Assembly (NCBI GenBank): GCA_027459785.1
Contig: DAIDGU010000057.1
Location: forward strand, 34,150 to 98,149
Length of the DNA: 64,000 bases
DNA from: Ktedonobacteria bacterium
Lineage (GTDB): Bacteria; Chloroflexota; Ktedonobacteria; Ktedonobacterales; JACDGC01
Reading direction: 5' to 3'
Shown here in pieces: positions 25,627 to 47,922 of the stretch. The stretch's first letter is position 1. Each line of letters opens with the position of its first letter. Made by a program: the position numbers and the translations under genes. The notes beneath the pieces are model-generated. The model saw nothing but the letters and a program-made list of their open reading frames with translations. It was not told the origin of the DNA and did not search any database.

Positions 25627-25824
25627 CGCGTGCGGCAGAGTGTGAGGCCACACGCTCTCAGCTTTATTATACCGCAAACGGCGGGGCTGCTGGCGGTTTC
25701 TGGCAATAGGAAAGAAAAGCAACCGACATATTAATGGCTTACATTGCAGCTTGTATGGTAGACTTTGGTTATCTTCTTGCGCCTGTGATGGCGAACAAAG
25801 CGAACGAGGAGGCATCGCATCGCT

Positions 25825-32011: not shown

Positions 32012-33970
32012 TCACGATACCAACATGATCGGCGAGCCGATCAACGCGGCGGAAACCGTCATCAGCGTCGTGGGCGGCGCATAGGTGCCGTTCCAGGCGA
32101 TCTGCCACTCGCCGCCGGCGTAATCGGGCGGCAGGGTGAGGGTGAGGCGCACCCACTTGCCGTGATAGAGATCGTCGCCGTTCAACGAGGTTTGGATCGC
32201 GGGCATGCCGCTGACCGTGGTCATGCGCGCCCAGGTGGGATATGTGACACTGCCGCCAGCGGCGGGCGGGACGATGCGCAGCGCCACCGCGCCGGCCCCT
32301 AGCCCTGGATTGAAGAGGCCGAGCGCGATTTGGCGGCCCGCGTAAGAGGCGGGGATGTTCGCCAGCGGATACATTTGGGATGAACCACCTTGCAGCATCA
32401 CCGTCGCCGCGTTCCAGGGCGTGATGGTCGCGCCGCCCGTCGCGCAGTCATCGGCGGTCGTCGTCGCATTGCGACAGACCTTGACGGCGTAGCCATGTAC
32501 GCCGTAACCTGCGCTGGTATCGACCGTCAGCCGATAATAAGCGGGGGCGTTCGCGGGGGCGGCGGGGACATTAGAGCCGACGCGCACCCACTGCATGTAA
32601 TCAGGCGGCAATGCAGACTGGCAACCAACCCCATAGGCGATAGGCTGCTGGTAGCTGCTGCCCGCGCCGCTCTGCACGTTCCACGTGCCAGCCGATGGGC
32701 AGCCATGCGCGGCGAGATCATTGGGTGCGGCATCCAATGATGGCAGCGTGGTGATCTGGGTCGGCGGCAACGGCGCGTTCGGCGTGGTATCTGGCGGCGT
32801 GGCGGCGGGCCACAGCGCGGCCAGCGGCACATCGGCGTTGCGCTGATAGAGCAGCGGCACACTGAATAGCGTATAGGCGAGTTGCGGATAGAACGCCGGA
32901 TTATCTGTCATGCCGGTCGAGTAGATATTTTCCGTGGTAAAGAGCTGATCGTTACGGTTCGTGCCAGTATAAACGAAGCGCGGATTCCACACCCACACCG
33001 AATAGCCGCTGCCACCCGCCGGAATGGTGATGAGATAGCTCGCTCCCGTCGGCACTGGTCCCGTGCGCGTCGCCAGGCCGCCAAAACCGCTGGGAATCTG
33101 GTCGGGATTGCCCGGCGTCCCCGGACTACAATTCGGGCCGCTGGCATACTGGGGCGCGTTCGTGCCAATGCTCAGTTGTGAGGTGGTGTAGATGTTGGTG
33201 GCGGCATCAGCATGCAGGGTATCCGCGCCATCGCTCCAGCCCGTCTCGCACTGCACGCTATAGGGATCGCCACGCTCCTTCAACTCATAGGGGCTAGCCA
33301 GCGCCGCGACCTGTTGCCCGATGTTTTCTGGTTTATCACCGAAAGCTCCAGTGCTATCGCCGAGCGCGACCGGCGGCAGGATCTCCGCCGTGGCCGTCGC
33401 CAGCGTCGTCGCGGGCGCAGGATCGATGAGCGCCACCAGTGACACCGGTACATTGATGTGGATGGTCACGGTCAGCGCCGGCACCGGATTCACCTGCGAT
33501 GTGACTGAGATCGCGCTGGCGTCACCGAAGCCGTTCTGCGCGGCGACCTGAAGCGCCTGGCTCGTCGCGTCGCTGCCATCCGGCGCGGGCGTGGCCACCG
33601 TGGGGTATTGTGGGAGATAGGCGACGCCGGCCAGCGCGGCGGCTTCCGCCGCTCGTTCCGCCTGGGCGAACGCGATATAGACGCGCAACCCATCGATCGA
33701 TAACCCGACGAGCATCAGCAGCGTCACCACGCTCAGCGCGAAAAGGACGAGCGCCTGGCCCTTGGCAGCACGGGGAGGCCGAGGATACCAACAGCCACAC
33801 CCTACAAGGCTACGAAACGCACGAAAGGAAACCGGAGACACTAGCCACAACGGGTCCAAGCTTTCGCCGCGCCACGAACACAAGCACGCGCGCCAGCGCG
33901 CCCATACATCGAGCAAGCCGAGTTTTTTGCTTTTGAGATGAAAAGGCGGTGATGATGACATTTGGTTCAT
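32012..33970 (-). CDS. TadG-like pilus assembly/minor pilin protein, large (about 650 aa)
   Basis: KGQALVLFALSVVTLLMLVGLSIDGLRVYIAFAQAERAAEAAALAG is a TadG/Tad_N-type N-terminus. Its ATG overlaps the tadE-like stop (ATGA). The 5' part of track ORF 32012..34504 overlaps the upstream gene and is rejected. Confidence 0.65.
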   Translation of the reverse strand: MNQMSSSPPFHLKSKKLGLLDVWARWRACLCSWRGESLDPLWLVSPVSFRAFRSLVGCGCWYPRPPRAAKGQALVLFALSVVTLLMLVGLSIDGLRVYIAFAQAERAAEAAALAGVAYLPQYPTVATPAPDGSDATSQALQVAAQNGFGDASAISVTSQVNPVPALTVTIHINVPVSLVALIDPAPATTLATATAEILPPVALGDSTGAFGDKPENIGQQVAALASPYELKERGDPYSVQCETGWSDGADTLHADAATNIYTTSQLSIGTNAPQYASGPNCSPGTPGNPDQIPSGFGGLATRTGPVPTGASYLITIPAGGSGYSVWVWNPRFVYTGTNRNDQLFTTENIYSTGMTDNPAFYPQLAYTLFSVPLLYQRNADVPLAALWPAATPPDTTPNAPLPPTQITTLPSLDAAPNDLAAHGCPSAGTWNVQSGAGSSYQQPIAYGVGCQSALPPDYMQWVRVGSNVPAAPANAPAYYRLTVDTSAGYGVHGYAVKVCRNATTTADDCATGGATITPWNAATVMLQGGSSQMYPLANIPASYAGRQIALGLFNPGLGAGAVALRIVPPAAGGSVTYPTWARMTTVSGMPAIQTSLNGDDLYHGKWVRLTLTLPPDYAGGEWQIAWNGTYAPPTTLMTVSAALIGSPIMLVS

Positions 33971-34539
33971 CCTGGGGTGAGCGGTACAACGACATGATCG
34001 ACCACAGAGAGTGAGCCAGTGGCGATCAGTGGCGTTTGCCAGGTGTAGGTGTAGTCGATTTCGACGCCAAGCATGGCAGGCGGCGTAAAAGCAGGGGTGC
34101 GCTGCGCCGGCGACCAATTCATGGCCTGGGCGGGTGGGGCGCTCACCAGGCTCACACAGCCCGGATCGCCGGCATACACATCTGCATAGGCGCTGCCGCC
34201 CAGGCCACCAAGTGGCAATCCATCGCTCCCCGGCTGGTAGATGCTGATGCGCGTGATCGTGAGGCCGGCATATGGGCCGAGGCCGGCAGCAATCGCCCCC
34301 AGCGCATCGCAATCCGCCACCGCCGCATTCCCTGCCGCCGCCGCGCTGAGCGCGCCCTGGCGCGCGGCATATGTCACCGCGAGGTGCGCGTTCAGCAGCG
34401 CTCCCATGTCCACCACCCCGGCGAGCATCACGAAAAGGATGGTCACGAAGAGGACGAACTCGACCAAGCTCTGCCCGCGCCTTTTTCCACTGGGTTTTAT
34501 ACACAAGCGTTCCACGTGGAACATGGTGCCGTGAAACAT
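33967..34539 (-). CDS. TadE-like protein
   Basis: RRGQSLVEFVLFVTILFVMLAGVVDMG is the TadE N-terminal motif. Palindrome copy 6 lies in its first codons. Confidence 0.7.
   Translation of the reverse strand: MFHGTMFHVERLCIKPSGKRRGQSLVEFVLFVTILFVMLAGVVDMGALLNAHLAVTYAARQGALSAAAAGNAAVADCDALGAIAAGLGPYAGLTITRISIYQPGSDGLPLGGLGGSAYADVYAGDPGCVSLVSAPPAQAMNWSPAQRTPAFTPPAMLGVEIDYTYTWQTPLIATGSLSVVDHVVVPLTPG
34509..34522. repeat. palindrome copy 6 (GTTCCACGTGGAAC)
   Basis: Exact 14-mer. It is read as M-F-H-V-E-R at the 5' end of the tadE-like ORF. Confidence 0.95.
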
Positions 34540-34541
34540 CC

Positions 34542-35108
34542 TCAGCCTCCCTCCGGCGCGAGCGGCATTATCGCCGTCGCATTCAGCGTCAGCGTCGCGC
34601 CCGTCGCCCCGATGAACGAGGTCAGCCAGGTATACCGATACGTGATGCGCACGCCCAGGTAGACCGGCGCGGCGACCGTGCTGACACGGCTGGCGACGGG
34701 CCAGGACGGCGACGTGAGAGCGTTGCCCGCCCCATCATAGACATCCTCCGCGCCACCGGTTGGCCCAGCGCCCGTGGCATCGGATTGATAGATAATGATC
34801 TGCGTGATCTGCGCGACGAAAAGCGGCTGCACGATGCGCCGAATCAGCGCCTCCGTCTGCGCATCCGCATTGCCCAGCCGCGTCGCATCCAGCGCCGCCG
34901 TGCGCGCGCCCTGATGAGCGGCAGTGTCATAGAGCGCCGTCGCGCTATAGATCAGTGCTAATTCGATCAACCCGAAAAGCAGTGCCAGAAACAACGGCAG
35001 CACCAGCGCGAACTCGACGAGCGCCTGGCCGTGTCGGGCGGGGATACGTCCCACATGGCGCTGGGACGGCGGGGGCGAGGTGAAGTGCGGGGACGGCGGG
35101 CGCGGCAT
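34542..35108 (-). CDS. TadE-like protein (start uncertain; the ORF is open up to 35468)
   Basis: HGQALVEFALVLPLFLALLFGLIELAL is the TadE motif. The upstream 120 codons are encoded by REP and tandem-repeat DNA. Confidence 0.6.
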   Translation of the reverse strand: MPRPPSPHFTSPPPSQRHVGRIPARHGQALVEFALVLPLFLALLFGLIELALIYSATALYDTAAHQGARTAALDATRLGNADAQTEALIRRIVQPLFVAQITQIIIYQSDATGAGPTGGAEDVYDGAGNALTSPSWPVASRVSTVAAPVYLGVRITYRYTWLTSFIGATGATLTLNATAIMPLAPEGG

Positions 35109-35137
35109 CGGCGGGCGGTTGGCGGTGTGACGGGGAC

Positions 35138-35262
35138 GCGGGCGGTTGAAACCGCGCCGTTGGGGCCATCCGGCCACGAAACCTGCCTGCGCAGGTTCAC
35201 GCCAGTCCGCGAAGGCGGACTTCGTCGCCGCCAGGCGCTTAGGCGCGGTTTCAACCGCCCGC
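35138..35262. repeat. REPIN-like doublet: two REP units in inverted orientation
   Basis: GCGGGCGGTTGAAACCGCGCC...CACGAA-ACCTGC/CTGC/GCAGGT hairpin (35180..35197), then AGTCCGC/GAAG/GCGGACT (35204..35221) ...GGCGCGGTTTCAACCGCCCGC. Confidence 0.75.
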
Positions 35263-35324
35263 GTCCTCGTATCGGCAACCGCCCGCGTCCTCGTATCGGC
35301 AACCGCCCGCGTCCCCGTATCGGC
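35253..35324. repeat. 24-bp tandem repeat x3 (AACCGCCCGCGTCCTCGTATCGGC)
   Basis: Three consecutive units; the third has 1 mismatch. A degenerate CCGCCGCAACCTCCCG x2 follows. Confidence 0.85.
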
Positions 35325-35464
35325 AACCGCCCGCCGCAACCTCCCGCCGCCCGCCGCAACCTCCCGCGTCCCCCGCGCTCCGGCCATTGCCCGCATCCCC
35401 GGTACTCCCACTATTGCCCGCGTCTCCGGTGCTCCTTCCCGTACTACATATCTGCTTGTTATCC

Positions 35465-36394
35465 TCATAGCCGCATCCCCGGTGCGACCGAGTGGATGAT
35501 CTGGGGGATTGATGGCCCCAGTAGCACGATGAAAAGCGGCGGAAAAACGAGGATGACGAGGGGGAACATCATCTTGATCGGCGCTTCGCGGGCGAGGGTT
35601 TCGGCGCGCTGGCGGCGACGCACGCGCATATCAGCGGATTGTTCGTGCAGCACCTGTTCCAGCGGAGCGCCGAGCTGACGACTCTGGTTGATGGTGGCGA
35701 CGAGCGTGTGGATCTCATCCAGCCCCACGCGGTCGGCGAAGTGTTGCAGCGCGTCGCCCAGGTGGACGCCAGCGCGCAATTCCAGCAGCGTGCGCCCCAG
35801 TTCGGCGCGCATCACTGGCGGCGCATGCTCCGTCACGCGCGCCAAGGCGCGCTCCAACGCCATCACCCCTGTGCAAAGCGTCAGCATATCCAGCAGGTCA
35901 GGCAGGGCCGCACGAATGTCGCCCTGGCGTGTCTTGGCTTTGCCGTTCACCCACATCACCGGCAGCATATACGCCGCCGCCGCCGCGCCCACCCCACCCA
36001 ACACCACCTGCACCATACCGCCGCTGGCCACGAGCGCCAACGCGGCGAAACACAGACCAAAACCCACGCCCGCGAAAAAGCGCAACGCCATGAAGGTCGA
36101 GGCGTCTAAATTGCCGCCGAGGTCGGCCCGATTGATCACCCGCTGCATCTTATCCAGCGAGTTGCCGGGTGCCAACCGCCCGATACTTTTGCCCAGGTTA
36201 CTCAACATCGGGCGCACCAGACGTTCAAGCAAGGGACGACGCAATTCATCATCCACCATAACGATCCGCTGGCGCAAAAGGCGATCCAGCCGCTGCTGCA
36301 CGGCGTCGCCGCGCGCCCGCCGTCCCACGCCCACGACTAGCACGATCACGCTGATCCCCGCACAACACGCCGCTACTAGCGAATAGGCTATCAT
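35465..36394 (-). CDS. tadC: Flp pilus assembly protein TadC (T2SS F-family)
   Basis: ALPDLLDMLTLCTGVMALERAL...INQSRQLGAPLEQVL...AREAPIKMMFPLV, a typical TadC pattern. Confidence 0.8.
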   Translation of the reverse strand: MIAYSLVAACCAGISVIVLVVGVGRRARGDAVQQRLDRLLRQRIVMVDDELRRPLLERLVRPMLSNLGKSIGRLAPGNSLDKMQRVINRADLGGNLDASTFMALRFFAGVGFGLCFAALALVASGGMVQVVLGGVGAAAAAYMLPVMWVNGKAKTRQGDIRAALPDLLDMLTLCTGVMALERALARVTEHAPPVMRAELGRTLLELRAGVHLGDALQHFADRVGLDEIHTLVATINQSRQLGAPLEQVLHEQSADMRVRRRQRAETLAREAPIKMMFPLVILVFPPLFIVLLGPSIPQIIHSVAPGMRL

Positions 36395-36482: not shown

Positions 36483-37445
36483 CTACACGCGGATATCGAC
36501 GACTTTGCGGATGACGACGACGCCGAGCGCGATCATGATGCCCGCCGTCAGGAACATCGTCCAGCCGCACCAGGTCGTCGTCTGAAACACGCCCAGGATG
36601 TAATGGGGATTGAAGACGAGCAGCAAAAGCAAGATGGCGACGGGCATCAGCGCCACGACATAGCCGGAATAACGTTGCTGCGCCGTCAGCGACTTCACCT
36701 CACCTTCCAGGCGTACGCGCTCGCGGATCGTCTCGCTGATGCGTTCGAGCATCTGCACCAGATTGCCGCCGCTCTCAGTCTGGATGGCGATGGCTGTGAC
36801 GAGCAATTGCAGATCGACGCTGGGGACGCGATCCGTCAGGTTCGTCAGCGCCTCTTTGACGCCGGTGCCATAGGTGATCTGCTGCACCACCAATTGCAGT
36901 TCCTTCGAGATCGGCGGCTTGGTCTGGCGCGCGGCCAGGTCCAGCGCCTGAGCGATGGTGCTGCTGCCGGAGCGCAGGGCGCTGGCGATCAGTTGCACCG
37001 CGCCGGGCAGTTGCGCGTCGAAGTCGCGCGCCCGCTTCGCACGGCGGGCGGCAATCCACCATTGCGGCCCCCAAAACGTGCCGGCGACGAGCAGCATGAA
37101 GAGGAAGATGTTATGGAGGACGACGCTCAGAAGGAGGCCCAGGCCCAGCAAGATGGCGACCAGCAGGATGAATTCACCGGCGGTCAGCGGCACGCCCGCG
37201 CGCGAAAGCTGTTCGTCCAACCCCACACGCCCGGCGAAGCGATTGAGCGCGGCGACGAGCTGGCCGGCGTCCTGGCGCGGCAGGGCATCGCGCGCCAACC
37301 CCTGGCGCTGGATCTCGAGCTGGCGCAAGCGATCTGCCACGCGGTTATGCCGGCGCGTCCATTCACGGCTGAGGCCGAAAAGGATGGTGAAGACCGCCAG
37401 CGCGCTCAGCACGCTCACCAGCAGCGGCACCTGACCCGCGCTCAT
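36483..37445 (-). CDS. tadB: Flp pilus assembly protein TadB (T2SS F-family)
   Basis: QLPGAVQLIASALRSGSS...IQTESGGNLVQMLERISETIRER. ATGA overlap with the cpaF stop. Confidence 0.8.
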   Translation of the reverse strand: MSAGQVPLLVSVLSALAVFTILFGLSREWTRRHNRVADRLRQLEIQRQGLARDALPRQDAGQLVAALNRFAGRVGLDEQLSRAGVPLTAGEFILLVAILLGLGLLLSVVLHNIFLFMLLVAGTFWGPQWWIAARRAKRARDFDAQLPGAVQLIASALRSGSSTIAQALDLAARQTKPPISKELQLVVQQITYGTGVKEALTNLTDRVPSVDLQLLVTAIAIQTESGGNLVQMLERISETIRERVRLEGEVKSLTAQQRYSGYVVALMPVAILLLLLVFNPHYILGVFQTTTWCGWTMFLTAGIMIALGVVVIRKVVDIRV

Positions 37446-38842
37446 GGCCGCGCCTCACGGCGAAAGATCGTCGGCGGCACAGGATAACCACGCCGCTCCA
37501 TCTCGTCCAGCAGGCGCGGCACGGTCCCTTTGGCGCGCAATCGACCGTGTACGCGGCCCTGCTCATCCAGTCCGGCGCGCTCGAACTCGAAGATCTCGAC
37601 CACCTCCACACCGTCGCCGTTCGCCCCCGCGCGCAATTCGGCGATGGAAGCGATCTTGCGCGAGCCGTCCTCGAAATGGTTCAGATGCACGATCAGGTTG
37701 ATGGCGCTGAGGATTTGCGCGCGCACGGCGCGGTCCGGCAGATCGATGCCAGCTTGCAATACCAGCATCTCCAGCCGGTTCAGCACGTCCGGCGCGCTAT
37801 TCGCGTGCAGCGTCGTCATCGATCCCTCATGGCCCGTATTCATCGCTTGCAACATGTCCAGCGCCTCGCCGCCACGACACTCGCCGACGATAATACGGTC
37901 GGGCCGCATTCTGAGCGCGTTAGCTACGAGCTGGCGAATCGTCACCTGATGCTTGCCCTCAACACTGGGCGGGCGGCTTTCCATGCGCACCACGTGCGCC
38001 TGCTGCAACTGCAATTCCGCCGCATCCTCGATGGTGATGATGCGCTGCTCCTGGGGGATGAAGACCGACAGAACGTTGAGGATCGTCGTCTTACCGGTGT
38101 TGGTGCCGCCGGAGACGATGATGTTCATCCGCGCCTCCACGCAACGCTGCAAAAAGAGCATCATATCGCGCGAGATCGTGCCGTTGTCGATCAGATCTTG
38201 CGGCTGCAACGCCTTCGCTGCGAACTTCCGGATCGTCAGGATGGGACCGTCGAGCGCGATAGGGCGGATGACGATGTTGACGCGCGACCCATCTTTCAGG
38301 CGAGCATCCACCGTCGGCGTCGTCTCATCCACGCGCCGCCCGATCTGCGAGACGATGCGCTCGATGACGCGCATCAGGTGCGGTTCGTCGTGGAACCGGA
38401 TGTCGGTCTGCATCATCGCGCCGCGCCGCTGGTCAATCCACACGCGGTATGGTCCGTTGACCATGATTTCGGTCACGTTCTCGTCGGCCAACAAGGGTTC
38501 GATGGGACCATAGCCCAGGATGTCGGCCAGGCAACGCGCAATCAGCGCCAGGCGCTCGTTCTTGCTCAGGGGCATCTGCTGCTTCTGCGCCTCAATATCG
38601 ATGATGCGCTGCAAACGCTCTTCCACCTCGCGTCGCATCTGCACCGGTGGCAACTGATCGATCTGGGTCTTGCTCGTCTCCAGGTCCGCCACCAGCAACA
38701 ATTGGATCTTGCGCTGCAAGTCGTAATAGGCCTGTTCGCGCGCGGTGGGACCGGTGCGGCCAGTGCCGCGCAGATCGCCGCTGCCGCTGGGGCGCGGCGT
38801 CGTCGGGTGGGCGGGCATATCAGCATAGCGTCGGGGTGTCAT
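37442..38842 (-). CDS. cpaF: Tad secretion ATPase CpaF/TadA
   Basis: VSGGTNTGKTTILNVL (Walker A), IITIEDAAEL, GHEGSMTTLHANS. GGAGG RBS. Confidence 0.9.
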   Translation of the reverse strand: MTPRRYADMPAHPTTPRPSGSGDLRGTGRTGPTAREQAYYDLQRKIQLLLVADLETSKTQIDQLPPVQMRREVEERLQRIIDIEAQKQQMPLSKNERLALIARCLADILGYGPIEPLLADENVTEIMVNGPYRVWIDQRRGAMMQTDIRFHDEPHLMRVIERIVSQIGRRVDETTPTVDARLKDGSRVNIVIRPIALDGPILTIRKFAAKALQPQDLIDNGTISRDMMLFLQRCVEARMNIIVSGGTNTGKTTILNVLSVFIPQEQRIITIEDAAELQLQQAHVVRMESRPPSVEGKHQVTIRQLVANALRMRPDRIIVGECRGGEALDMLQAMNTGHEGSMTTLHANSAPDVLNRLEMLVLQAGIDLPDRAVRAQILSAINLIVHLNHFEDGSRKIASIAELRAGANGDGVEVVEIFEFERAGLDEQGRVHGRLRAKGTVPRLLDEMERRGYPVPPTIFRREARP

Positions 38843-38860: not shown

Positions 38861-40066
38861 TCACGCGCGCGGTTTTTTCGTCGCTTGCAAATCTTGATAC
38901 AGCCGCCGCGCCAGGTCGTGCATCGCACGGCTGATGGGCGCACGGCGCGCATAGGTGACGAAAGGGACGCCGCGATTGACGGCCCCGATGACGGTGCGCA
39001 CATCGTCGGGAAACTGCGCGGCGAAGCGCCGCCCCAGCGACTGTTCGACGCGCTTAGGGGCGATCTGATAGCCGCCATCCATACGATTGCCGATCAGCCA
39101 GCAACGGTCGCCAGCGATACCCCGCCGGCGCAAGCCTTCCAGCAAGCCCTTCACACGATTGATGGCAGTGATCTCCGGCGTCGTAACGATCAAGAGGCGG
39201 TCGGCGCTCTCCAGGATCGCTTCATTGGCGTCGGTGAAAGTGGCATCAGTATCTACCACCGTCACATCGCAATGCTCACGCACCTCAACCAGGATCGCAC
39301 GCATCGTCTCGCGCCGGAACTCGCGCGCCACCTCTGGATCATCCGGCGAACGCAAGAGGCGGATGCCTGAATCATGGCGCACAGCGACCGATTGCAACGT
39401 CTCGAAGTCCAGATCTTCAGGATCGCGCAACATGTCGAGGGAGTGGTTGATGTGATCAAGGTTCAGCAAGACGTGGTCATCACCGGCGGCGAGGTTGCCA
39501 TCTACCAGCAGCACCTCTTCGGCACACGCATGCAAGGCCACCGCCAGGTTCGCCGCGATGATGCTGCGCCCAACACCACCCTTCGCGCCACAGACAGCCA
39601 CCAGGTGTTGCCCGCGCGCGGATGTTCCACGTGGAACACTGGGATGCGCGCCCGAACCCCGGCTGGTCCCCGGCAACTGCACCACCCGGCGGATCGCGCG
39701 CAACACGTCGTCGGCGCGCAAGGGCTTCACCAGAAAACCACGCGCCCCCACGTCCAGCGCCTGCTGCATCAGATCCTTGCTATCTTCGACAGACATCAGG
39801 ATGATCTGCGCCGGCACCTCCATGCTGAGGACGTGCGCCGCTGCCAGCCCGTCCATGCCGGGCATGTAGATATCCATGAGGATGATATCCGGCTGGTGCC
39901 GCCGCGCCAGCGCGATGCCCTCCCTGGCATCCGTGGCGATGCCGACGACGCGCAGATCCGCCACGGTGCTGAGCCAGCGGCGCACCGCCTGGGCCGTTTC
40001 GATGAGGTCGTCGATGATGAGGATGCGGATCGGCTGGCCCGCTCCTTCAGGTGAGTGCTGTGCCAT
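38861..40066 (-). CDS. CpaE/TadZ-like ParA/MinD-family ATPase with a canonical N-terminal receiver domain
   Basis: Receiver: ILIIDDL...DIILMDIYMPGMDG...IILMSV...GFLVKP. ATPase: VAVCGAKGGVGRS (deviant Walker A). GGGAGGGG RBS. Confidence 0.8.
   Translation of the reverse strand: MAQHSPEGAGQPIRILIIDDLIETAQAVRRWLSTVADLRVVGIATDAREGIALARRHQPDIILMDIYMPGMDGLAAAHVLSMEVPAQIILMSVEDSKDLMQQALDVGARGFLVKPLRADDVLRAIRRVVQLPGTSRGSGAHPSVPRGTSARGQHLVAVCGAKGGVGRSIIAANLAVALHACAEEVLLVDGNLAAGDDHVLLNLDHINHSLDMLRDPEDLDFETLQSVAVRHDSGIRLLRSPDDPEVAREFRRETMRAILVEVREHCDVTVVDTDATFTDANEAILESADRLLIVTTPEITAINRVKGLLEGLRRRGIAGDRCWLIGNRMDGGYQIAPKRVEQSLGRRFAAQFPDDVRTVIGAVNRGVPFVTYARRAPISRAMHDLARRLYQDLQATKKPRA
39623..39638. repeat. 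palindrome copy 7 (TGTTCCACGTGGAACA)
   Basis: Exact 16-mer inside the cpaE-like CDS. It is read S-V-P-R-G-T-S in the linker between the receiver and ATPase domains. Confidence 0.95.
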
Positions 40067-40249
40067 CCTTGGCCCCTCCCGCCTGTGCAAGCGCAAGAGG
40101 GATGCCAGCCCAAGCATAAGTCCGATAGTCCTTTATCTACCACATGAATTCCGCTCACATCTCACGTATAATAGATGATGTCCAGAGATATGTTGTCTCT
40201 GGCTGTGCATCGTCCTCTTGACATGATCGGAGGAGAAAGGATCTGGACC

Positions 40250-40679: not shown

Positions 40680-41879
40680 CTACTGACTACTCAGCACTGG
40701 CTTAAAAAGCTTTTTGTTAGCGGCAGCAACAAAGCTAAAGAATGCTAATAGTGACACTATCAGAGCGATTGTCCAATTATTGCCAAGAAATTGTAGAGCA
40801 AACCCCACGAGGAAAAGACCAGCAGAGTAAGCAAGGAAATCTCCTGACCGCGTAATGCTGGCAACTCTTCCTTGAATATGATGGGGTATTACGCCTGAAA
40901 TATTGCCACAAATAATATAAAAGGCTGGCAGTATGGCGAACAAGAGCGCAGTCACCACCGTTAATAGCGTAATATTGTATGCAAACAAATACAAGGAGAA
41001 CGTTACTGCACAGAGTATATTGGTGATGACGAGCATTGTATAGCGGTCGTATTGGTGCATTACTTTACCGAAGAATGCGGAGCCGAGGATGCCAGCGACG
41101 GCACTAATCGCCAAAACGATACCAATAGTAGTCGCTGAAGCGTGTAAGTCACGCGCGAATACAATCACCAGCAGTGAGAGGGCGGAAGTGGCCAATGCTC
41201 TGGCCCATGAAAGAGCAATGAAAACCCTATACATACGATTATGCCAGAACCATGCACCAGCCTCTTTAAGACCTTTTCGTATGCTCGTTTGCTTTAGGGC
41301 ATCTGGAGCTGATAAGGGAGAATTTATGAGTACTAAGGCTATGACGTTCAAGAAATACGACAGAGAGTCTGTCGCAAAGGAGAAGACAGCTCCAACTGTT
41401 TGATACAAAAAACCGCCGAATGAGGGTCCTACGAGCATTGCGAAGTGCTCAATCATACTATCCTGAGCAACTGCTTGAGGTAATTGCTCATTCGCTACAA
41501 GAAATCTACGGGATGAGAACCTACCAATATTTGCAAATACGAAACACCCGCCCTCAATGCCCATAAGAATAAATAGCTCGACAACTGTAAGCCGATGGAG
41601 GAATAGGCCAATGGCGAGCATTGCAAAGCCACTCCCCGCATTCCCAGCGAGCATTATGTTTCGTCTATTCCATTTATCGAGAATGTAGCCTGCGGGTATA
41701 GCTAAGAGCACATAGGTCACTCCTCGCATTGCAACAACCGAACCGGCAATTGCTGATGAGCCGGTCAGTGATAGGATAACGAGCGGCATAGCAATGCCCG
41801 AGATTTCTGTACCCATCCATGAGAGGCCTTGTCCGGCCCACATTAGCATGTAGTTACGCTGTTTCCAGAGTGGTTGCAT
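40680..41879 (-). CDS. MFS transporter (AT-rich, likely foreign)
   Basis: ~12 hydrophobic segments. The start is taken at MQPLWKQRNYMLMWAGQ. A hand count of 40741..40800 gives 22/60 G+C. Confidence 0.8.
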   Translation of the reverse strand: MQPLWKQRNYMLMWAGQGLSWMGTEISGIAMPLVILSLTGSSAIAGSVVAMRGVTYVLLAIPAGYILDKWNRRNIMLAGNAGSGFAMLAIGLFLHRLTVVELFILMGIEGGCFVFANIGRFSSRRFLVANEQLPQAVAQDSMIEHFAMLVGPSFGGFLYQTVGAVFSFATDSLSYFLNVIALVLINSPLSAPDALKQTSIRKGLKEAGAWFWHNRMYRVFIALSWARALATSALSLLVIVFARDLHASATTIGIVLAISAVAGILGSAFFGKVMHQYDRYTMLVITNILCAVTFSLYLFAYNITLLTVVTALLFAILPAFYIICGNISGVIPHHIQGRVASITRSGDFLAYSAGLFLVGFALQFLGNNWTIALIVSLLAFFSFVAAANKKLFKPVLSSQ

Positions 41880-42216
41880 AGAGTGATAATAACACACAAA
41901 TGACTGCTGTTGTATGGCCCCCATATTGCAACCGCCATTGCAGCGCATTCGATACAGTCAGATAACCAATCGTCGGTGGGTTATGAAGCGCGCTCGGCTA
42001 GTGCGATTCGCCCGGCATCATCTAAGGGAAGGTTGCGTTATATAGATCGGGAATAGCCGTCGTCGTGAGAACGGTGGCGAAGGAACGTGCCTCGACTTTC
42101 AATGTTGCGATAGTTAAAATAGGAAGCATGGCTCACCTCTTTGCCTCAGCGACATTCAATGTCTCCATGCTATGCCATAACTCACCACTCTGTCAAACTA
42201 TTCTGCTTTCATCTCA

Positions 42217-43014
42217 TCACGGCGGGGTGAAGCCGAAGTGGCTGATGATCCAGCCGGTGTCGATGGGCTGGGTGGTGACAAGGCCGTTATCACCCGGCTT
42301 GCGCAGAACGAGATCCAGCTTGGCGGTTTCGACGAGCAGCTTGAGTACCAGCGCGTCCTGGTGGGTGACGGCGACATAGAGCATACCACCGCTGATCATA
42401 TAGATGGTGAGGTTTTGCAGCGTCTCCTGCGCCACCTGGCAGCCGCCACGTACCGTCGGCCCCTGCACGCACTCCGTCGCCAGGATGTCCACGTGGTCGC
42501 CCTCTTGCGCGCCGATCTGCATGCCGGGCGCGCTACCCAGCGGCAGCGCCACCAACACGTCGCCGGCAGGCAGACCTGCCGGATCATGGTTCGTGAGGCT
42601 GTGCGCTGGGCCAGAACCCAGCGCGGTCATGCGCCCGTCGTTGCGCCGCAAGATGTCGCCAGCGTAGAACGGCGCAGTGATGATCTGATTGCTCAGCGCC
42701 GTGTTCAGGTCGCTCTGATTGGTGAAGGTGAAAGCGTCGGCGGGAACATCGCTCGCTGGCAGATGTTCCACGTGGAACACATCACCGATGCGCGCATAGC
42801 CGTTACCGCTCTGCGCGAGGGAAAGGACGATGCCGGCGTTCAAAGGCTGGGCCGCCACCACGACAGCCACCCCCTGACCACCGCTGCCCGCACCGGTATT
42901 ATTGGTAGTCAGAAAGAGTACCAGCACCGCCGTGATGAGCGCCAGGACGATGCCGAGGATGATGAGCGGCGTGCCGCCGCCGGATGTGCGTGGACGTTGC
43001 GTGGGCGCAGCCAT
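42217..43014 (-). CDS. cpaB: Flp pilus assembly protein CpaB/RcpC
   Basis: N-terminal transmembrane segment (PLIILGIVLALITAVLVLFL) followed by a SAF-like region. GGAGGAGG RBS before the ATG at 43014. Position is immediately after flp. Confidence 0.7.
   Translation of the reverse strand: MAAPTQRPRTSGGGTPLIILGIVLALITAVLVLFLTTNNTGAGSGGQGVAVVVAAQPLNAGIVLSLAQSGNGYARIGDVFHVEHLPASDVPADAFTFTNQSDLNTALSNQIITAPFYAGDILRRNDGRMTALGSGPAHSLTNHDPAGLPAGDVLVALPLGSAPGMQIGAQEGDHVDILATECVQGPTVRGGCQVAQETLQNLTIYMISGGMLYVAVTHQDALVLKLLVETAKLDLVLRKPGDNGLVTTQPIDTGWIISHFGFTPP
42764..42779. repeat. palindrome copy 8 (TGTTCCACGTGGAACA)
   Basis: Exact 16-mer inside the cpaB CDS, read D-V-F-H-V-E-H-L. Confidence 0.95.
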
Positions 43015-43101
43015 AACAAAAAAGCCTCCTCCATGAGTCCCGGTGGGAATCATTCCCTTGCTGCTGGGATCGAGCGCAAGCAGCATACCTGAAACGCTGC
43101 G

Positions 43102-43254
43102 TTACGTGCCTTTAAGGGTGGTCACGATGCTGGTGATGGCGGGCAACAGCACGATGATAATGCCGATCGCCACGACAGCGACCAGCGCGATAATCAGGGC
43201 ATATTCCACCAGCCCCAATGGGCGACGGTCGTCTTGCGGGGGTTGATTCGTCAT
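43102..43254 (-). CDS. flp: Flp/Fap-family pilin (50 aa; not in the ORF track)
   Basis: Own translation: MTNQPPQDDRRPLGLVEYALIIALVAVVAIGIIIVLLPAITSIVTTLKGT. It has the G-x-x-EY motif plus a hydrophobic helix. GGAGG lies 9 nt upstream. Confidence 0.75.
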   Translation of the reverse strand: MTNQPPQDDRRPLGLVEYALIIALVAVVAIGIIIVLLPAITSIVTTLKGT

Positions 43255-43343
43255 GCTTGCTGCCTCCGTGTGCGTTGCTACGTACCGCTATTGTAGCAGA
43301 AATTGCCCGGCGTACGCCACGGGAGACAGCCCCGCCAGCAGCC

Positions 43344-44588
43344 CTAGCGCGCTTCGTTCACGATGTAGTCCAGCCGCGTGCCGTGGCCGGGGGCGCTCTT
43401 GATGCCGAGGATCGCCCCGATCAGATCGACCTCGATGCACAACTGGCCCAGACCGGAATGAAAGCCTTGCCGCGCCCGTTCCATCACAGGATCGACCGCG
43501 AAGCCCACGCCGTCATCTTCCACCGAGAGGATCACCGTGTCGGGCTGGTAGGTGAGCGCGACCTGGATGTGCCGCGCCTGGCTGTGGCGCAGCGCGTTAC
43601 GCACGGCCTCGCGCGCCGCGCGGAAGAGCGCGCGTTCGATGGCGACATGGCAGCGCCGTTCGCGCCCACTCAGGCGCACGCCCAAGGGCGCGCCGCGCGT
43701 CTCAATCAGGTCGTGCAGGTAGCGTTGCAGCGTGCCAGCCAGGCCCAATTCGCTCAGCATCATCGGCTCTAGCTCGAAGATGAGCATATCCGCCTCGCGC
43801 AATGCCTCGTTCAGTCGGTTCTTCAGATCGCCAACGACATGCTGCGCGTGCGCCGGATCGCTCTTGAAGGCTGCCTCGCAGAACTCCGCTTGCAGCACAG
43901 CATCCGATAACGCGAAGCGCACGCGCTCGTCGATGCTGCGCGCCACGCTGTGGCGCTCATATTCGCGCGCGGCCAGCAGCGCCTCTTGATCCACCAGTTG
44001 CGCCGAAGTCACCGGCTGTGGTCCGGCATTCAATTCGTTGGATTCCGCGAAGTCGGCTGAAAGGGCCAGGCGCGCGGGCAGCAACGGCGCGGAATAGGGC
44101 GGCGGTTCGCGCAGGAACGCGGCATCGGCCATCGCCTGCAAGGCGAAATCCAGCGCGCCCAGGCAACGGCGGTCGTGGTCGGCTTCCGTGCGCAGATAGT
44201 CGCACACCTCGCGCGTGCCGACATACGCCAGTTCGGCCTGCGCCCACTCCTGGTAGGCTTTGACGATGGCCTGGCGGCTGTGCTGGCTGAGATCCTGCTC
44301 GATAGCGCGCAGGGCCGCTGTCGCGTGCGTGCGCCGTTCCGCTTGGCCGCTCATCAGCCGCTCGGATTCGGTCAGGTTGCCGGCGATCTCGTGGAGGTGT
44401 GCTTGCAGGCGGCGACACTCGTCATTCAGCCGCGCCCGCGCGGCGTCTAACGTGGCGCTCTGGGCAAAATCAGGTTCATCGTCGGGGCGAAACTCGTCGT
44501 CCAATGGCCCCAATTCGCCGCTGTCAGGGACAGGGCGATGCTGGATTTGGCTGCTGGAACGATCGGCGAAATCGGCGGTGATGGGCAT
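43344..44588 (-). CDS. cytoplasmic HisKA_3-type histidine-kinase-like protein with a degenerate H-box
   Basis: N-box AVRNALRHSQA, DDGVGF and GHGTRL are present. The H-box reads EYERHSVARSIDERV where ...ARELHD... is expected. No transmembrane segments. Confidence 0.7.
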   Translation of the reverse strand: MPITADFADRSSSQIQHRPVPDSGELGPLDDEFRPDDEPDFAQSATLDAARARLNDECRRLQAHLHEIAGNLTESERLMSGQAERRTHATAALRAIEQDLSQHSRQAIVKAYQEWAQAELAYVGTREVCDYLRTEADHDRRCLGALDFALQAMADAAFLREPPPYSAPLLPARLALSADFAESNELNAGPQPVTSAQLVDQEALLAAREYERHSVARSIDERVRFALSDAVLQAEFCEAAFKSDPAHAQHVVGDLKNRLNEALREADMLIFELEPMMLSELGLAGTLQRYLHDLIETRGAPLGVRLSGRERRCHVAIERALFRAAREAVRNALRHSQARHIQVALTYQPDTVILSVEDDGVGFAVDPVMERARQGFHSGLGQLCIEVDLIGAILGIKSAPGHGTRLDYIVNEAR

Positions 44589-44614
44589 CCGTGCCACCTT
44601 CCCTTCCAGGGACT

Positions 44615-44677
44615 GCGGGCGATTGAAATCGCGCCTAAGGGCTACGCCACGAAGTCCACCTGCGTGGACTGGGGATC
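44615..44677. repeat. REP unit (GCGGGCGATTGAAATCGCGCC...AGTCCAC/CTGC/GTGGACT)
   Basis: Same architecture as 54524.. and 35138... Lies between the response regulator stop and the kinase-like start. Confidence 0.75.
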
Positions 44678-44684
44678 GACAGGG

Positions 44685-45377
44685 CTAAGCGTCGTCGGTG
44701 TGGATCTTGATCCAGCCGTGGCGGAGCGCGTGGACGACAGCAGCCGTGCGGTCATTCACGTTGAGTTTTTTCAGGATCGACGTGATGTGATTCTTGACGG
44801 TCTGATCGCTGATCTTGAGCGACTTGGCGATCTCTTTGTTGCTGTTGCCACGTGAAATGTAATCCAGGATCTCGACCTCACGGGTGGAGAGCGGCGTATA
44901 GAGCGGCGTCACCTCCGGCTCATCCTCGGTCGCCATCTCGCGGAAGACGCGCAACACGCGCGAGGCCACGTGTGGGCGCGAAAGGACGTTATCGTTGATG
45001 AGGAAGATGCCCTGGCTGACGTTCGAGATCGCCTTCACCAAGTCTTCGGCCTCAATGTCTTTCAGCAGATAGGCCGCCGCGCCGACTTTGATACTCTGGA
45101 ACAATTGTTCTTCGTCTTCTTGTTCGGTGAGCATGATGATGGCGACCTGCGGGGAGAAGTGGCGCAATTGTCGGGCCAGTTCCAGGGAATTCCCGCTGAG
45201 CAGATAAGCATCGACCAGGATGACATCCGGCGTTTGGGTGCGCGCCAATTCCAGCCCTTGGGTCGCGTCCGCGCTTTCAGCGATGAGGGTACAGTTGCCG
45301 GATTGCTCCATCGCCCAGCGCACGCCAGCGCGAAACAGCGGATGTTCATCGATGATCATGATGCGAATGGTTTCCAT
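44685..45377 (-). CDS. NarL/LuxR-family response regulator
   Basis: IMIIDEHP...DVILVDAYL...IIMLT...YLLK receiver, plus the LuxR HTH LSTREVEILDYISRGNSNKEIAKSL. Confidence 0.9.
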   Translation of the reverse strand: METIRIMIIDEHPLFRAGVRWAMEQSGNCTLIAESADATQGLELARTQTPDVILVDAYLLSGNSLELARQLRHFSPQVAIIMLTEQEDEEQLFQSIKVGAAAYLLKDIEAEDLVKAISNVSQGIFLINDNVLSRPHVASRVLRVFREMATEDEPEVTPLYTPLSTREVEILDYISRGNSNKEIAKSLKISDQTVKNHITSILKKLNVNDRTAAVVHALRHGWIKIHTDDA

Positions 45378-45640
45378 GCAGCGGATCTCCCTTGTGGCGC
45401 TTCTCAGTGGGTGGACTTTTGTACGTCATAGTATACCCGATGCGCACAAGAACGCCTAGCCCCCAATTTTTGATAGCCCAGATAGGCTATCTATGCCTGA
45501 ATGGATGGCAGAGATTGGGACCGAGGCGACGATAACGCTAGCCCATCCGGGGAGGCGATCGCGTAAAACAAGATCGGTTGGTGAGCGAGGGCAACCAGCA
45601 GGGCAAATCGACTAAGAACAATGCGATCCGGCAGGCGAGG

Positions 45641-46333
45641 GCCGGCTGGCGGGTAAACCCGCGCCTTCGATCACCAAGCCTCCCTACGGAGGCTGGAGGT
45701 CGGCGGGGACGATCACAGAGATGAGGATGAATCTGAGGGGGAGTTTGGCGATGGCGGTTCGGTTACGTCGTCTCGTTCCATGATTTTCCAGTGGGCGCAG
45801 GTGCCGAGCGTGTGGTGATGGGCTTCCTGATTGCGGATGTAGTCTTGCACATTGGGCAAACGATGTTCGCCGACGCTGAACGCACCATAGCCGCCCTGCC
45901 ATTTGAAGAGATCGACGCCGGGGCGGGCGACGATGGCGTGGGCGGAGGAGCCTTTGATCTCGCCGATCAGTTTGGCGAGCGGAACGGTCGCGGGCAGCCG
46001 AACCAGCAGGTGCATATGATCCTCCACACCGCCTAACCCCAGCGGGTGCGCCCCGAACTCCTCGCATTTCGCCAATATCAACCGATACACATCGCCTCGA
46101 ATGTCTTTCGTCAACAATGGCAACCGATCCCAGGTCGCCCACACATAATGCACGAAGACATGCACGTTTGCTCCCCGCCTCGCCGCTGCCCTCCCGCGCT
46201 CTTATCCTCAACGAGGAAACACTTTCATCGCTTCAACTATACAATATACAACATTCGCGCCCTGATCGCCTCTCTCGCCCTCCAGCCTCCGCAGGGAGGC
46301 TTCGTGATCGAAAGCGTGGGTTTACCCGCCGGC
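45641..46333 (-). mobile_element. RAYT unit: IS200-like Y1 transposase flanked by inverted REP hairpins
   Basis: The 52-nt core at 45648..45699 matches the reverse complement of 46279..46330 at 48/52 positions. Each contains an AGCCTCC/N4/GGAGGCT hairpin. Confidence 0.8.
45713..46165 (-). CDS. REP-associated tyrosine transposase (IS200/IS605 TnpA-like, Y1 HUH)
   Basis: MHVFVHYVWATWDRLPLL..., HUH motif VEDHMHLLV, and a C-terminal Tyr context VQDYIRNQ. Confidence 0.85.
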   Translation of the reverse strand: MHVFVHYVWATWDRLPLLTKDIRGDVYRLILAKCEEFGAHPLGLGGVEDHMHLLVRLPATVPLAKLIGEIKGSSAHAIVARPGVDLFKWQGGYGAFSVGEHRLPNVQDYIRNQEAHHHTLGTCAHWKIMERDDVTEPPSPNSPSDSSSSL

Positions 46334-46431: not shown

Positions 46432-46992
46432 TCACTCCACCGCCCGCTTCAGCCACACGGCCATCTCGCCGTCGGGATACGCAGCGTTGGCATAGAGCGA
46501 GAGGTCGAGGCCGTCGAGCGTGAAGCCCAGTGCGCGATAGAAGCGGATGGCGGGTACGTTGGTCGTCTGGGTCTCGCACACGACGGTGCGCAGCGCCAGC
46601 TCGCGCGCGCGGGCAAGTACAGCATTCATCAAACGGCGACCGATGCCCTGGCCGCGAGATGCTGGGGTGATGTGGAACTCCCACACGTTCAAGCTGCCGT
46701 TCCACTGCTGCGGCTCCGTGACCGCGATGCCCACACAGGCCGAGCCGTCAAACGCCCCAAAGGCATGCCCTGCCGCCGCCAGCGCGGCATAGCGGCGCTG
46801 TGCCTCGTCATCCAGCAACGCGCCGTACTCCTTGGTGTACGGCTGCGCCAGCGGCGTCAGGCGCAGCTCAAAGACCGTCAGGGCATCGGTCTCCGTTCGG
46901 CTGGCGTGATAGACGGCATCGGTCGTATATCCCGTGATGAGTCGCCGCAACAAGCCTCCGTCAAGTTGCGTGATAGGCTGGATAATGAGCAT
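46432..46992 (-). CDS. GNAT N-acetyltransferase (streptothricin-acetyltransferase-like)
   Basis: WEFHITPASRGQGIGRRLMNAVLARA...NVPAIRFYRALGFTLDGLDLSLY. Confidence 0.75.
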   Translation of the reverse strand: MLIIQPITQLDGGLLRRLITGYTTDAVYHASRTETDALTVFELRLTPLAQPYTKEYGALLDDEAQRRYAALAAAGHAFGAFDGSACVGIAVTEPQQWNGSLNVWEFHITPASRGQGIGRRLMNAVLARARELALRTVVCETQTTNVPAIRFYRALGFTLDGLDLSLYANAAYPDGEMAVWLKRAVE

Positions 46993-47010: not shown

Positions 47011-47922
47011 CTATGCCCCATACTCTTTCAGCATGGTGCGGATCTCGCCGGCGACCTTGAGTGCCTCGTCCATCGGGCGCTGCCACAGGTTGCGGCCAAA
47101 GATGACGCCGGTGCCGCCAGCGGCCATGCCGTGGCGCGCTTTTTCGACGACATCGCTTTCACCCAGCTTCTCGCCGCCGGAAAAGATCACCAGCGTCTTG
47201 CCGGCGGACTGCACGATCTGCGCCAGCGCGTCGGCGGGGGTGAACTGCGTCGTGTTATACGGCGCGGGGGCGGCTTTGTCTTTGTCGGGATTGAACTTCG
47301 GCACGTTGACCTTCACCACGTCCGCGCCCAGTTCGGCGGCCACGCGGGCAGCGTAGTCGATGGCATAGAAGCTGTCGCGCCCGCCCTTGGCTTCAATGGC
47401 TTCGCCGCGCGGGTAGGCCCACACGATGATCGGCATGCCAAACTTCTCGGCGTCTTCGCGTACCTTGGCGAATTGGATGAAGTCGGCTTCTTGCTGCGGC
47501 GAACCGATATAGAGCGTATAGCCCACGGCGTCCGCGCCCAGGCGCACGGCGTCTTCGACGCTGGCGATGCAAGGCGAGAGCGGCGTTTTATCCGAGGGGA
47601 TCTCCGTCTTGCCGTTGAGCTTCAGCACCAGCGGCACCTGGCCGGCATATTTCGCCATATATTTGCTGGCGATGCCGATCTGGAAGACGATGCCTGAAAA
47701 ACCGCCCTCTTTAGCGAGGCGCAATTGGAAGTCGGGATCTTTGGCGGGGGGATTGGAGAAAAAGTCGCGTGGGCCATGCTCCAAGCCCTGGTCGATGGGC
47801 AGGAACATCAAGGTGCCATTGGCGGGGCCAGCACCGTACAGCAGCCGATGCAAGCGCGCCCGCTTGCCAATGCTCAGGTCCATGTCTGCGAGCGTCACGC
47901 GCCGCACTTGCGTCATTGCCAT
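47011..47922 (-). CDS. fbaB: class I fructose-bisphosphate aldolase (DhnA/FbaB, archaeal type)
   Basis: LPIDQGLEHGP, LVLKLNGKT, GADAVGYTLYIGS, VWAYPRG, VKVNVP and GVIFGRNLWQR match the DhnA family pattern. Confidence 0.85.
   Translation of the reverse strand: MAMTQVRRVTLADMDLSIGKRARLHRLLYGAGPANGTLMFLPIDQGLEHGPRDFFSNPPAKDPDFQLRLAKEGGFSGIVFQIGIASKYMAKYAGQVPLVLKLNGKTEIPSDKTPLSPCIASVEDAVRLGADAVGYTLYIGSPQQEADFIQFAKVREDAEKFGMPIIVWAYPRGEAIEAKGGRDSFYAIDYAARVAAELGADVVKVNVPKFNPDKDKAAPAPYNTTQFTPADALAQIVQSAGKTLVIFSGGEKLGESDVVEKARHGMAAGGTGVIFGRNLWQRPMDEALKVAGEIRTMLKEYGA

Follow-up and report, generated by a model that had tools for sequence, protein, structure and literature searches.

What can a histidine kinase homologue do once the histidine that it should phosphorylate has been replaced, and what is the role of such a protein next to a pilin gene? 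The question is raised by two genes in a 64,000-nucleotide stretch of DNA from Ktedonobacteria bacterium (GenBank assembly GCA_027459785.1, contig DAIDGU010000057.1, positions 34,150 to 98,149), called the window below. On its minus strand the gene for a NarL/LuxR-type response regulator is followed by a gene for a DegS-like kinase homologue, and flp, the prepilin gene of a Tad pilus locus, starts 89 nt 3' of the latter. An earlier note, made from the letters of the stretch alone, had placed the pair directly upstream of flp, in agreement with this arrangement, and had read the H-box of the kinase homologue as carrying Asp where the phospho-accepting His should be. We compared the two proteins and their genes with related loci. 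The replacement turns out to be a family trait, with Asp or Glu at this position in 26 of 28 members, and it is consistent with a pseudo-histidine kinase that may steer its partner regulator by docking.

An acidic residue at the phospho-acceptor position

Three independent alignments agree on the place of Asp223 (residues of the kinase-like protein are numbered in the 417-aa open reading frame from GTG 44597). With phmmer, YERHSVARSIDERV of the window protein aligns with EERQRIARDLHDTL of DesK, Asp223 lying opposite H188. In an hmmalign alignment of 266 retrieved homologues, the Asp223 column contains His in 227 of the 266 sequences. When the family profile is compared with a profile of canonical kinases by hhalign (probability 100%, E 8e-55), 'ARxiDeRVr' is found opposite 'AReIHDgpaQ'. 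Judged by these alignments, Asp223 occupies the site of the phospho-acceptor His, and the profile alignment places no His there. The His-to-Asp change described in the earlier note is thereby borne out; the motifs that it listed, AVRNALRHSQA, DDGVGF, GHGTRL and EYERHSVARSIDERVRF, were all recovered at their places on the minus strand, and the canonical paralogue with ELHD that it used for comparison is present in the window (Table 1).

To define the family, a word-indexed search gave 18 full-length relatives at 36–93% identity, and an exhaustive profile search added eight representatives of 50%-identity clusters and two distant sequences, giving 28 members at 23–93% identity. A gap in E from 1e-58 to 2e-20 sets the 18 relatives apart from ordinary HisKA_3 kinases, and none of the 18 has a precomputed HisKA_3 match. 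Position 223 is Asp in 20 members, Glu in six, Ser in one and His in one, encoded by GAT, GAC, GAG, GAA, AGC and CAC. The HisKA_3 phosphatase motif DxxxQ, which has Asp at His+1 and Gln at His+5, is not retained in the window protein, where His+5 is Phe; within the family His+1 is Glu in 19 members and Asp in three, and His+5 is Gln in three of 28. The window H-box thus reads 'IDERVRF', compared with 'IHDGPAQ' in the outgroup kinases, and does not have the DegS form. No orthologue has ELHD; one distant member has 'LHER'. The proposal that the nearby His of ERH could serve as acceptor is rejected, because this residue, H216, is replaced by Arg, Gln, Ser or Glu in 12 of the 28 members, which leaves His in 16, and no His anywhere in the DHp domain is conserved among the 28. 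N334, D361, G363, G365 and G382 of the ATP site are invariant in 28/28. Conservation is highest in the DHp and ATP-binding (CA) domains, where the top residue has a mean frequency of 0.64 and 0.65, respectively. These residue statistics imply that both catalytic determinants of the DHp domain have been lost while the nucleotide pocket and the receiver-contacting helices have been kept.

The gene is therefore not a casualty of sequencing or decay. GAC (Asp) is a single nucleotide away from CAC (His), as would be expected of a sequencing error, a strain-specific mutation or a decaying pseudogene. However, 26 independent cluster representatives have the same substitution, encoded by various codons, in full-length reading frames and with strongly conserved domains, and the comparison of orthologues rules this explanation out, leaving it practically no probability. 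The conservation indicates that the protein is under purifying selection. A kinase fold in which the His and the phosphatase motif are gone, which is kept under purifying selection and is always paired with a regulator gene, corresponds in these respects to a pseudo-histidine kinase in the sense of Collins & Childers, cited as a kinase fold without a core kinase function that is retained and integrated in a two-component context (PMC12632262). The idea of a pseudo-kinase or scaffold thus gains support from the acidic residue, from the intact and conserved gene and from its continued pairing with the regulator.

The product of the kinase-like gene is a cytoplasmic DegS-type member of the HisKA_3 kinase superfamily, intact and conserved. 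It has a GHKL ATP-binding domain with N, G1 and G2 boxes: Pfam HATPase_c matches residues 321–409 (E 1.9e-9), and the CA domain of VraS matches the window protein with E 1.5e-9. HisKA_3 (PF07730) falls below its threshold (12.7 bits against a cut-off of 24, E 0.2), with residues 214–279 on profile positions 1–66. The match to the DegS N-terminal domain (PF05384) is also weak (E 0.016, 15.1 bits against 27.6), and hhalign puts residues 59–138 on the N-terminal domain of canonical DegS-like kinases that carry PF05384. The AlphaFold2 model has a mean pLDDT of 74.9, with a disordered linker at residues 161–201 and an alpha/beta CA domain at residues 305–414. The best Foldseek matches are structures of DesK, followed by VraS, DivL (4q20) and HK853; these matches and the hhalign comparison make the homology to HisKA_3 kinases clear in spite of the low Pfam score. 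No transmembrane segment was found, the highest Kyte-Doolittle 19-residue window reaching 1.52 inside the CA domain; together with the helical hairpin predicted at residues 45–161, this agrees with the earlier description of a protein with a long coiled-coil-like N-terminus and no membrane anchor. In NCBIfam only generic NarL-class kinase models were matched, all far under their cut-offs, and no curated family there covers the protein.

A further invariant residue lies near the N-terminus. Ser26 (28/28) is part of an 'SGxLGP' motif at residues 26–31 (44505–44522, minus strand), in a region that is otherwise poorly conserved and predicted to be disordered. By likeness to B. subtilis DegS, which is itself regulated through Ser phosphorylation in the input domain (PMC3033389), Ser26 could be a phosphorylation or docking site.

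In a neighbour-joining tree, calculated without bootstrap, the Asp/Glu family is monophyletic and has as its sister a small clade with a His-to-Gln change that keeps DxxxQ; the outgroup consists of canonical DegS-like kinases with 'IHDGPAQ'. Since the lone His and the lone Ser member pair within the Asp/Glu clade, the acidic residue looks ancestral for the family. We considered the His member, P0018, as a relic of the ancestral state; in this tree without bootstrap it is nested with the Ser member inside the clade, so that its His may be secondary, and its H-box, 'LHERLGA', is also without DxxxQ. A scan of species-representative genomes with the family profile, by way of over-generic back-translated patterns, gave ordinary HisKA_3 kinases and no close family member among the matches listed, so that the taxonomy of the family rests on a single source name, Ktedonobacterales.

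The partner regulator, its orthologues and the link to flp

The regulators of 10 family loci are 77–92% identical, compared with only 27–61% for their kinase-like partners, and their helix-turn-helix is practically invariant. All have a receiver and a GerE domain, with D10, E11, D56, T84 and K106 invariant, and to this extent the canonical receiver claimed earlier is confirmed. The surroundings of the phospho-acceptor are not canonical. In the window regulator DD2 is Glu, D+4 is Leu instead of Pro, D+8 is Ser instead of Gly and T+1 is Glu, and 'DEHP', 'D(A/S)YLx(S/T)G' and an acidic residue at T+1 are common to all 10 family regulators. Pseudo-receivers are described as typically lacking the D+4 Pro and having a T+1 residue that is not small, as well as additional acidic residues in these loops, and in BldM a bulky T+1 is believed to impede phosphorylation (PMC12632262). 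As the receiver loops are pseudo-receiver-like, the kinase-like protein and the regulator appear to have moved away from canonical phosphotransfer in parallel. The loops differ according to the kinase with which the regulator is paired: orthologous regulators from loci that contain a canonical kinase, HK1, have 'DDHP', 'DxxMPxxDG' and Ala at T+1, and unrelated paralogous regulators have the same two motifs with Met at T+1. The linker of the family regulators, residues 124–165 ('FLINDNVLSRPHVASRVLRxFREMAxEEEPE..PLYTPLS'), is unusually long and near invariant, and is still recognisable in the orthologues from the two related loci described below.

These two loci, L093 and L094, encode regulators that share 53–55% identity with that of the window along their whole length, linker included, whereas the regulator paralogue in the window is 31% identical. 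The full-length identity and the shared unusual linker identify them as orthologues. In L093 the gene order is HK1 (a canonical DegS-like kinase), regulator, HK2 (also a canonical DegS-like kinase), a PMT_2-family gene, flp, cpaB and cpaE. In L094 HK1 and the regulator are followed by an HK2 with a His-to-Gln change (P0158, 3236–4336) and two flp genes. P0158 forms the sister clade of the Asp/Glu family together with P0157; from its H-box, a His-to-Gln change with retained DxxxQ is the expected design of a phosphatase-only sensor. HK1 and HK2 are 43% identical over DHp and CA. A gene for an HK1-type kinase is absent from all 10 Asp/Glu-family loci and from the window, where tblastn found the two known kinases only. 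To judge from their gene content, L093 and L094 look like earlier stages, with two canonical kinases in the one and a kinase plus a Gln-substituted copy with a phosphatase motif in the other. The suggestion that the pseudo-kinase works with a different kinase is thus plausible in view of the extra canonical kinase upstream of the orthologous regulator in the related loci, but none was found in the loci of the family itself.

All eight Asp/Glu loci with readable downstream sequence (window, L001, L003, L004/5, L006/7, L008, L089 and L091) have the genes in the order regulator, kinase-like gene, flp; among these loci the identity of the kinase to the window protein goes down to about 31%, while the genes upstream of the regulator vary. 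In most of them the tad genes come next. L003, however, has the trio by itself and L089 has it with cpaB as the only follower, the rest of the tad machinery being adjacent in neither. That these loci keep the trio without the adjacent machinery suggests that the linkage to flp is functional and not merely inherited. L002 and L090, which carry the His and the Ser member, and L092, a 2.3-kb contig with a distant Asp member, have no flp gene downstream.

Two elements in the intergenic regions are candidates for regulatory sites. In the spacer ahead of flp, the eight regions compared share an unvarying 'TnTGCTACAAT', the flanks of which cannot be aligned; this block resembles an extended -10 promoter that serves flp specifically. 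The regulator gene is preceded by a palindrome, ATAGCC-N6-GGCTAT, which is unique in the window, where 0.02 occurrences would be expected by chance. The palindrome recurs ahead of the regulator gene in at least five other loci, unchanged in L004/5, L006/7 and L090 and with one mismatch in L001 and L003, and it is followed by a conserved block, 'CTTGTGC..ATC.GGTATACT'. On this pattern it is a candidate autoregulatory operator. It was not found near flp or tad, even when two mismatches were allowed, and a scan of 42900–45800 for consensus promoters and terminators gave nothing useful. Since the palindrome is absent near flp and tad, control of flp by the regulator is suggested by gene order only. 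The earlier proposal of tad regulation is thus favoured by the conserved order in 8/8 Asp/Glu loci and lacks a regulator site at the flp promoter.

Proposed docking and the alternatives to it

We favour the reading that the protein is a pseudo-histidine kinase in which a natural phosphomimetic residue steers the partner regulator by docking, and give it about an even chance. It is modelled on DesK, whose H188E variant is a phosphomimetic that captures DesR in a phosphotransfer complex (PMC5231405), and which in its phosphotransfer state activates the D54A and D54N variants of DesR without phosphorylation (PMC4251995). We favour a natural phosphomimetic because DesK H188E traps the receiver and DesK can activate DesR in this way. 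Furthermore, the nearly exclusive use of Asp or Glu suggests that a negative charge at position 223 matters. The protein would be incapable of His-to-Asp phosphotransfer as well as of the canonical phosphatase reaction. The carboxylate would imitate phospho-His, as in the engineered DesK H188E, and would bias the DHp domain towards a receiver-binding, phosphotransfer-like state. As in DesK/DesR, the docked state would activate the regulator without phosphorylation, and by this analogy we favour docking that activates or stabilises the active state of the regulator over docking that sequesters it. The N-terminal coiled coil and the occupancy of the CA domain by ATP or ADP would gate docking, and the active-site surroundings of the regulator would have co-evolved away from the canonical pattern. 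The regulator, in turn, would act on its own promoter through the palindrome and, directly or indirectly, on flp/tad expression.

Several points weigh against docking by a phosphomimetic. Docking and its direction are carried over from DesK/DesR. The invariance of D56, T84 and K106 argues that something still phosphorylates the regulator, and that of the ATP pocket suggests that ATP is used in catalysis, for which pure docking has no need; the invariant pocket is the main unexplained fact. Asp and Glu are both tolerated despite the different reach of their side chains, and two members have Ser or His. No operator of the regulator type was found at the flp promoter, and this promoter, with its extended -10 element, looks able to work by itself. 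Finally, the family probably stems from a single lineage (Ktedonobacterales and related Chloroflexota), and the shared gene order may in part reflect common descent.

The earlier note had also proposed a phosphatase, and a phosphatase-only sensor, acting on a regulator phosphorylated by another kinase or by acetyl phosphate, would resemble the variants of NarX and DesK without His. The His is dispensable for HisKA_3 phosphatase activity (PMC12632262), the regulator retains its Asp, Thr and Lys, the related loci carry a second, canonical kinase upstream of the regulator, and the His-to-Gln sister clade retains DxxxQ. The hydrolytic water in HisKA_3 phosphatases is, however, positioned by the Gln at His+5 (PMC5231405), and both this Gln and the Asp at His+1 occur in just three of 28 members each. 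A phosphatase would also leave the strict preference for Asp or Glu at the His site without a reason, so that we regard this role as unlikely. Slightly more doubtful is an ATP-donating or modulating partnership with an unlinked DegS-like HK1, by heterodimer formation or trans-phosphorylation of the partner His, which would feed or throttle a shared regulator. In its favour are the invariant ATP-binding motifs and the related loci, in which a paralogous canonical DegS-like kinase and a protein of this kind, 43% identical over DHp and CA, flank the same orthologous regulator. What tells against it is the absence of an HK1 gene from the 10 family loci and from the window. In addition, histidine kinase dimers are usually homodimer-specific.

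The intact ATP pocket would also suit phosphorylation of Ser, Thr or Tyr, as by SpoIIAB/RsbW, mitochondrial PDK/BCKDK and plant phytochromes, with the protein itself, the regulator or the CpaE/TadZ receiver as target. Invariant candidate acceptors exist in S26, Y293 and S401, the Ser phosphorylation of B. subtilis DegS mentioned above offers a precedent, and NCBIfam gives a weak similarity to SpoIIAB (E 0.004). This likeness is that of the generic GHKL fold, though, no known substrate supports such a role and the conserved carboxylate is again left without a reason; we consider such an activity improbable. A reading that would account for both the carboxylate in 26/28 members and the invariant ATP site is a carboxylate-based relay, in which the CA domain would phosphorylate Asp/Glu223 itself and the resulting acyl phosphate would be passed to Asp56 of the regulator. 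The regulator retains its phospho-acceptor pocket, and receivers take phosphate from small acyl phosphates; yet we know of no histidine kinase that phosphorylates its own carboxylate. Moreover, the side chains of Asp and Glu are of unequal reach, the acid/base position His+1 is not constant, and Ser and His variants occur. The Glu at T+1 of the regulator should also hinder access to its Asp (PMC12632262), and we judge a relay of this type very improbable.

The pseudo-histidine kinase with a phosphomimetic residue can be placed among characterised systems by its likenesses and differences. With DegS–DegU of B. subtilis the window pair shares a soluble sensor, the order of N-terminal helical domain, DHp and CA, and a NarL/LuxR-type partner; the closest canonical relatives have the H-box 'REIHDGPAQ' and Pfam DegS, and one orthologue was named DegS by its source. 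In contrast to DegS, the H-box His is Asp or Glu, and 'HDGPAQ' has become 'DERVRF', with loss of the acceptor and of the phosphatase Gln. The Pfam matches to DegS and HisKA_3 have E of 0.016 and 0.2, respectively, and the genes are in the order regulator, then kinase, ahead of flp. DesK, the top Foldseek match, has the same fold, and its H188E variant has a carboxylate at the same site, but this variant is a laboratory mutant of a membrane thermosensor and keeps D189 and Q193; here the carboxylate is natural and ancient, DxxxQ is lost and the protein is known from sequence.

Among proteins that lack the His by nature, DivL of Caulobacter crescentus is a structural match (4q20) and has a kinase fold without acceptor His that is under selection and a DHp surface that binds a response regulator (PMC4211667, PMC5361649). 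It differs in belonging to the HisKA family, with Tyr for His and PAS domains, in signalling to CckA, in being alphaproteobacterial and in having no link to a DNA-binding partner gene or to pilus genes. PsmA of Streptomyces also has no H-box His (Glu in S. venezuelae, Asp in S. coelicolor) and no phosphatase motif, and is conserved within a single mycelial lineage (PMC12963549). Unlike the window protein, PsmA is a HisKA-type hybrid whose target is DivIVA at the polarisome; conservation does not extend to its ATP-binding motifs, and its His-site residue varies between Glu, Asp, Gln, Val and Tyr (PMC12963549). The present family has an acidic residue there with few exceptions, and its ATP site does not vary. 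PprA of Pseudomonas aeruginosa, unlike the kinase-like protein here, is a functional kinase, and control of flp has been demonstrated for its regulator PprB, whereas for the window pair it is suggested by gene order; we know of no sequence orthology between PprA–PprB and the window pair. What the two have in common is a sensor/regulator pair beside tad/flp, believed in the case of PprA–PprB to control these genes (PMC3510237, PMC6821963).

The tad locus and the place of the family

Table 1. Positions of the regulator, the kinase homologue and its domains, candidate regulatory elements and tad genes in the window.
Feature	Position	Strand	Remarks
NarL/LuxR-type response regulator, 230 aa	45377..44685	minus	Pfam Response_reg E 8e-22 and GerE E 5e-21
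DegS-like kinase homologue	44597..43344	minus	417 aa from GTG 44597; 414 aa if ATG 44588
N-terminal helical hairpin (coiled coil), residues 45–161	44115..44465	minus	AlphaFold2 helices 45–101 and 108–161, pLDDT ~90; homologous to DegS-type input domain
DHp (HisKA_3-like) domain, residues 204–301	43695..43988	minus	helices 204–246, 248–276 and 279–301; degenerate H-box AREYERHSVARSIDERVRF
Asp223 codon GAC	43929..43931	minus	phospho-accepting His position; His+1 = Glu224, His+5 = Phe228
ATP-binding (CA, HATPase_c) domain, residues 302–414	43356..43694	minus	N-box N334/H338, G1 D361-x-G363-x-G365 and G2 G382-L-G384 intact
Palindrome ATAGCC-N6-GGCTAT	45473..45490		~95 bp upstream of regulator gene; candidate operator
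TTTCTGCTACAAT, extended -10-like element (TGnTACAAT)	43290..43302	minus	between kinase-like gene and flp
flp prepilin gene, 50 aa	43254..43102	minus	prepilin motif G/LVEYALIIALVAV (G/LVEYALI) in alignment
cpaB/rcpC-like gene	43086..42217	minus	NCBIfam pilus_cpaB E 7e-6, below cut-off; weak Pfam RcpC and SAF
MFS transporter gene, low-GC insertion	41948..40680	minus	between cpaB and cpaE
Receiver + ParA (CpaE/TadZ-like)	38861-40117	minus	Pfam Response_reg and ParA
CpaF	37442-38842	minus	Pfam T2SSE
TadB	36483-37445	minus	Pfam T2SSF
TadC	35465-36394	minus	Pfam T2SSF
TadE-like	34542-35468	minus	Pfam TadE
TadG-like	32012-34504	minus	Pfam Tad
Canonical kinase paralogue with ELHD	24469-25815	minus	HisKA_3 E 1.5e-15

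The genes downstream of the pair make up a Tad/Flp (type IVc) locus with the Flp motif, CpaB (weak), CpaE/TadZ, CpaF/TadA, TadB, TadC and TadE pseudopilins (Table 1). The Pfam Flp_Fap match to the window flp is weak, and the flp orthologue in L091 has a precomputed Flp_Fap match; the position of the cpaB-like gene is kept across the loci compared. For the kinase-like protein, ATG 44588 (MPITADF...) is the likely start, because it has a well-spaced Shine-Dalgarno sequence, AAGGTGG, 5 nt upstream and every orthologue begins with MP. The gap between cpaB and cpaE is a variable insertion point: the MFS gene has a GC content of ~49%, compared with ~62–65% around it, a DUF4145 gene lies at the same spot in L001, and the spot is empty in L004, L006 and L091. 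The N-terminal receiver of the CpaE/TadZ-like ParA ATPase looks canonical, with DD36/37, D81 in 'LMDIYMPGMDG', S109 and K131-P (Response_reg 77 bits). There is therefore a second, apparently phosphorylatable receiver in the tad locus, without a canonical kinase there.

Upstream of the regulator gene, an IS200/Y1-type transposase gene (45713–46165, minus strand) and a GNAT acetyltransferase gene (46432–46992, minus strand) part it from a DeoC/DhnA-type aldolase gene (47011–47922), which in L091 and L002 lies directly 5' of the regulator gene. A 194-aa MglA-like small GTPase ('MPLINMSKREI.CKIVYYG.GLSGKTT') is encoded upstream of the regulator gene in L006 (5194–5778), L091 (3233–3817) and L002 (4045–4629), adjoining the methionyl-tRNA synthetase gene in L006 and L091; tblastn found no copy of it in the window.

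Pseudo-histidine kinases are a recognised kind of protein, DivL and PsmA among them, of which very few have been studied. In a literature search of incomplete coverage we found no paper on the kinase-like family or on the regulation of Tad pili in Chloroflexota, and this is apparently a small, undescribed family of pseudo-histidine kinases. Its sequence features set it apart from the characterised pseudokinases: it belongs to the DegS/HisKA_3 class and combines a conserved acidic substitution with an intact ATP site and a co-varying DNA-binding partner. HisKA_3 domains without His have been put at ~0.3% (56 of 16,025; PMC12632262). Proteins like the present one escape such counts, because they fall under the Pfam threshold.

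If the mechanism is an ordinary one, a phosphatase or an inert scaffold, the finding is of value mainly for annotation, where the label of functional histidine kinase should not be given to genes of this family. If, on the other hand, Asp/Glu223 does carry an acyl phosphate, the family would represent a two-component relay on a carboxylate instead of a histidine. The change at the His site is the same as that used in the laboratory to mimic phospho-His, and the family and its related loci offer a natural series for how a two-component pair moves from phosphotransfer to binding-based signalling. For the Ktedonobacteria, mycelial Chloroflexota whose cell biology is almost unknown, the pair provides a first handle on the regulation of the Tad pilus.

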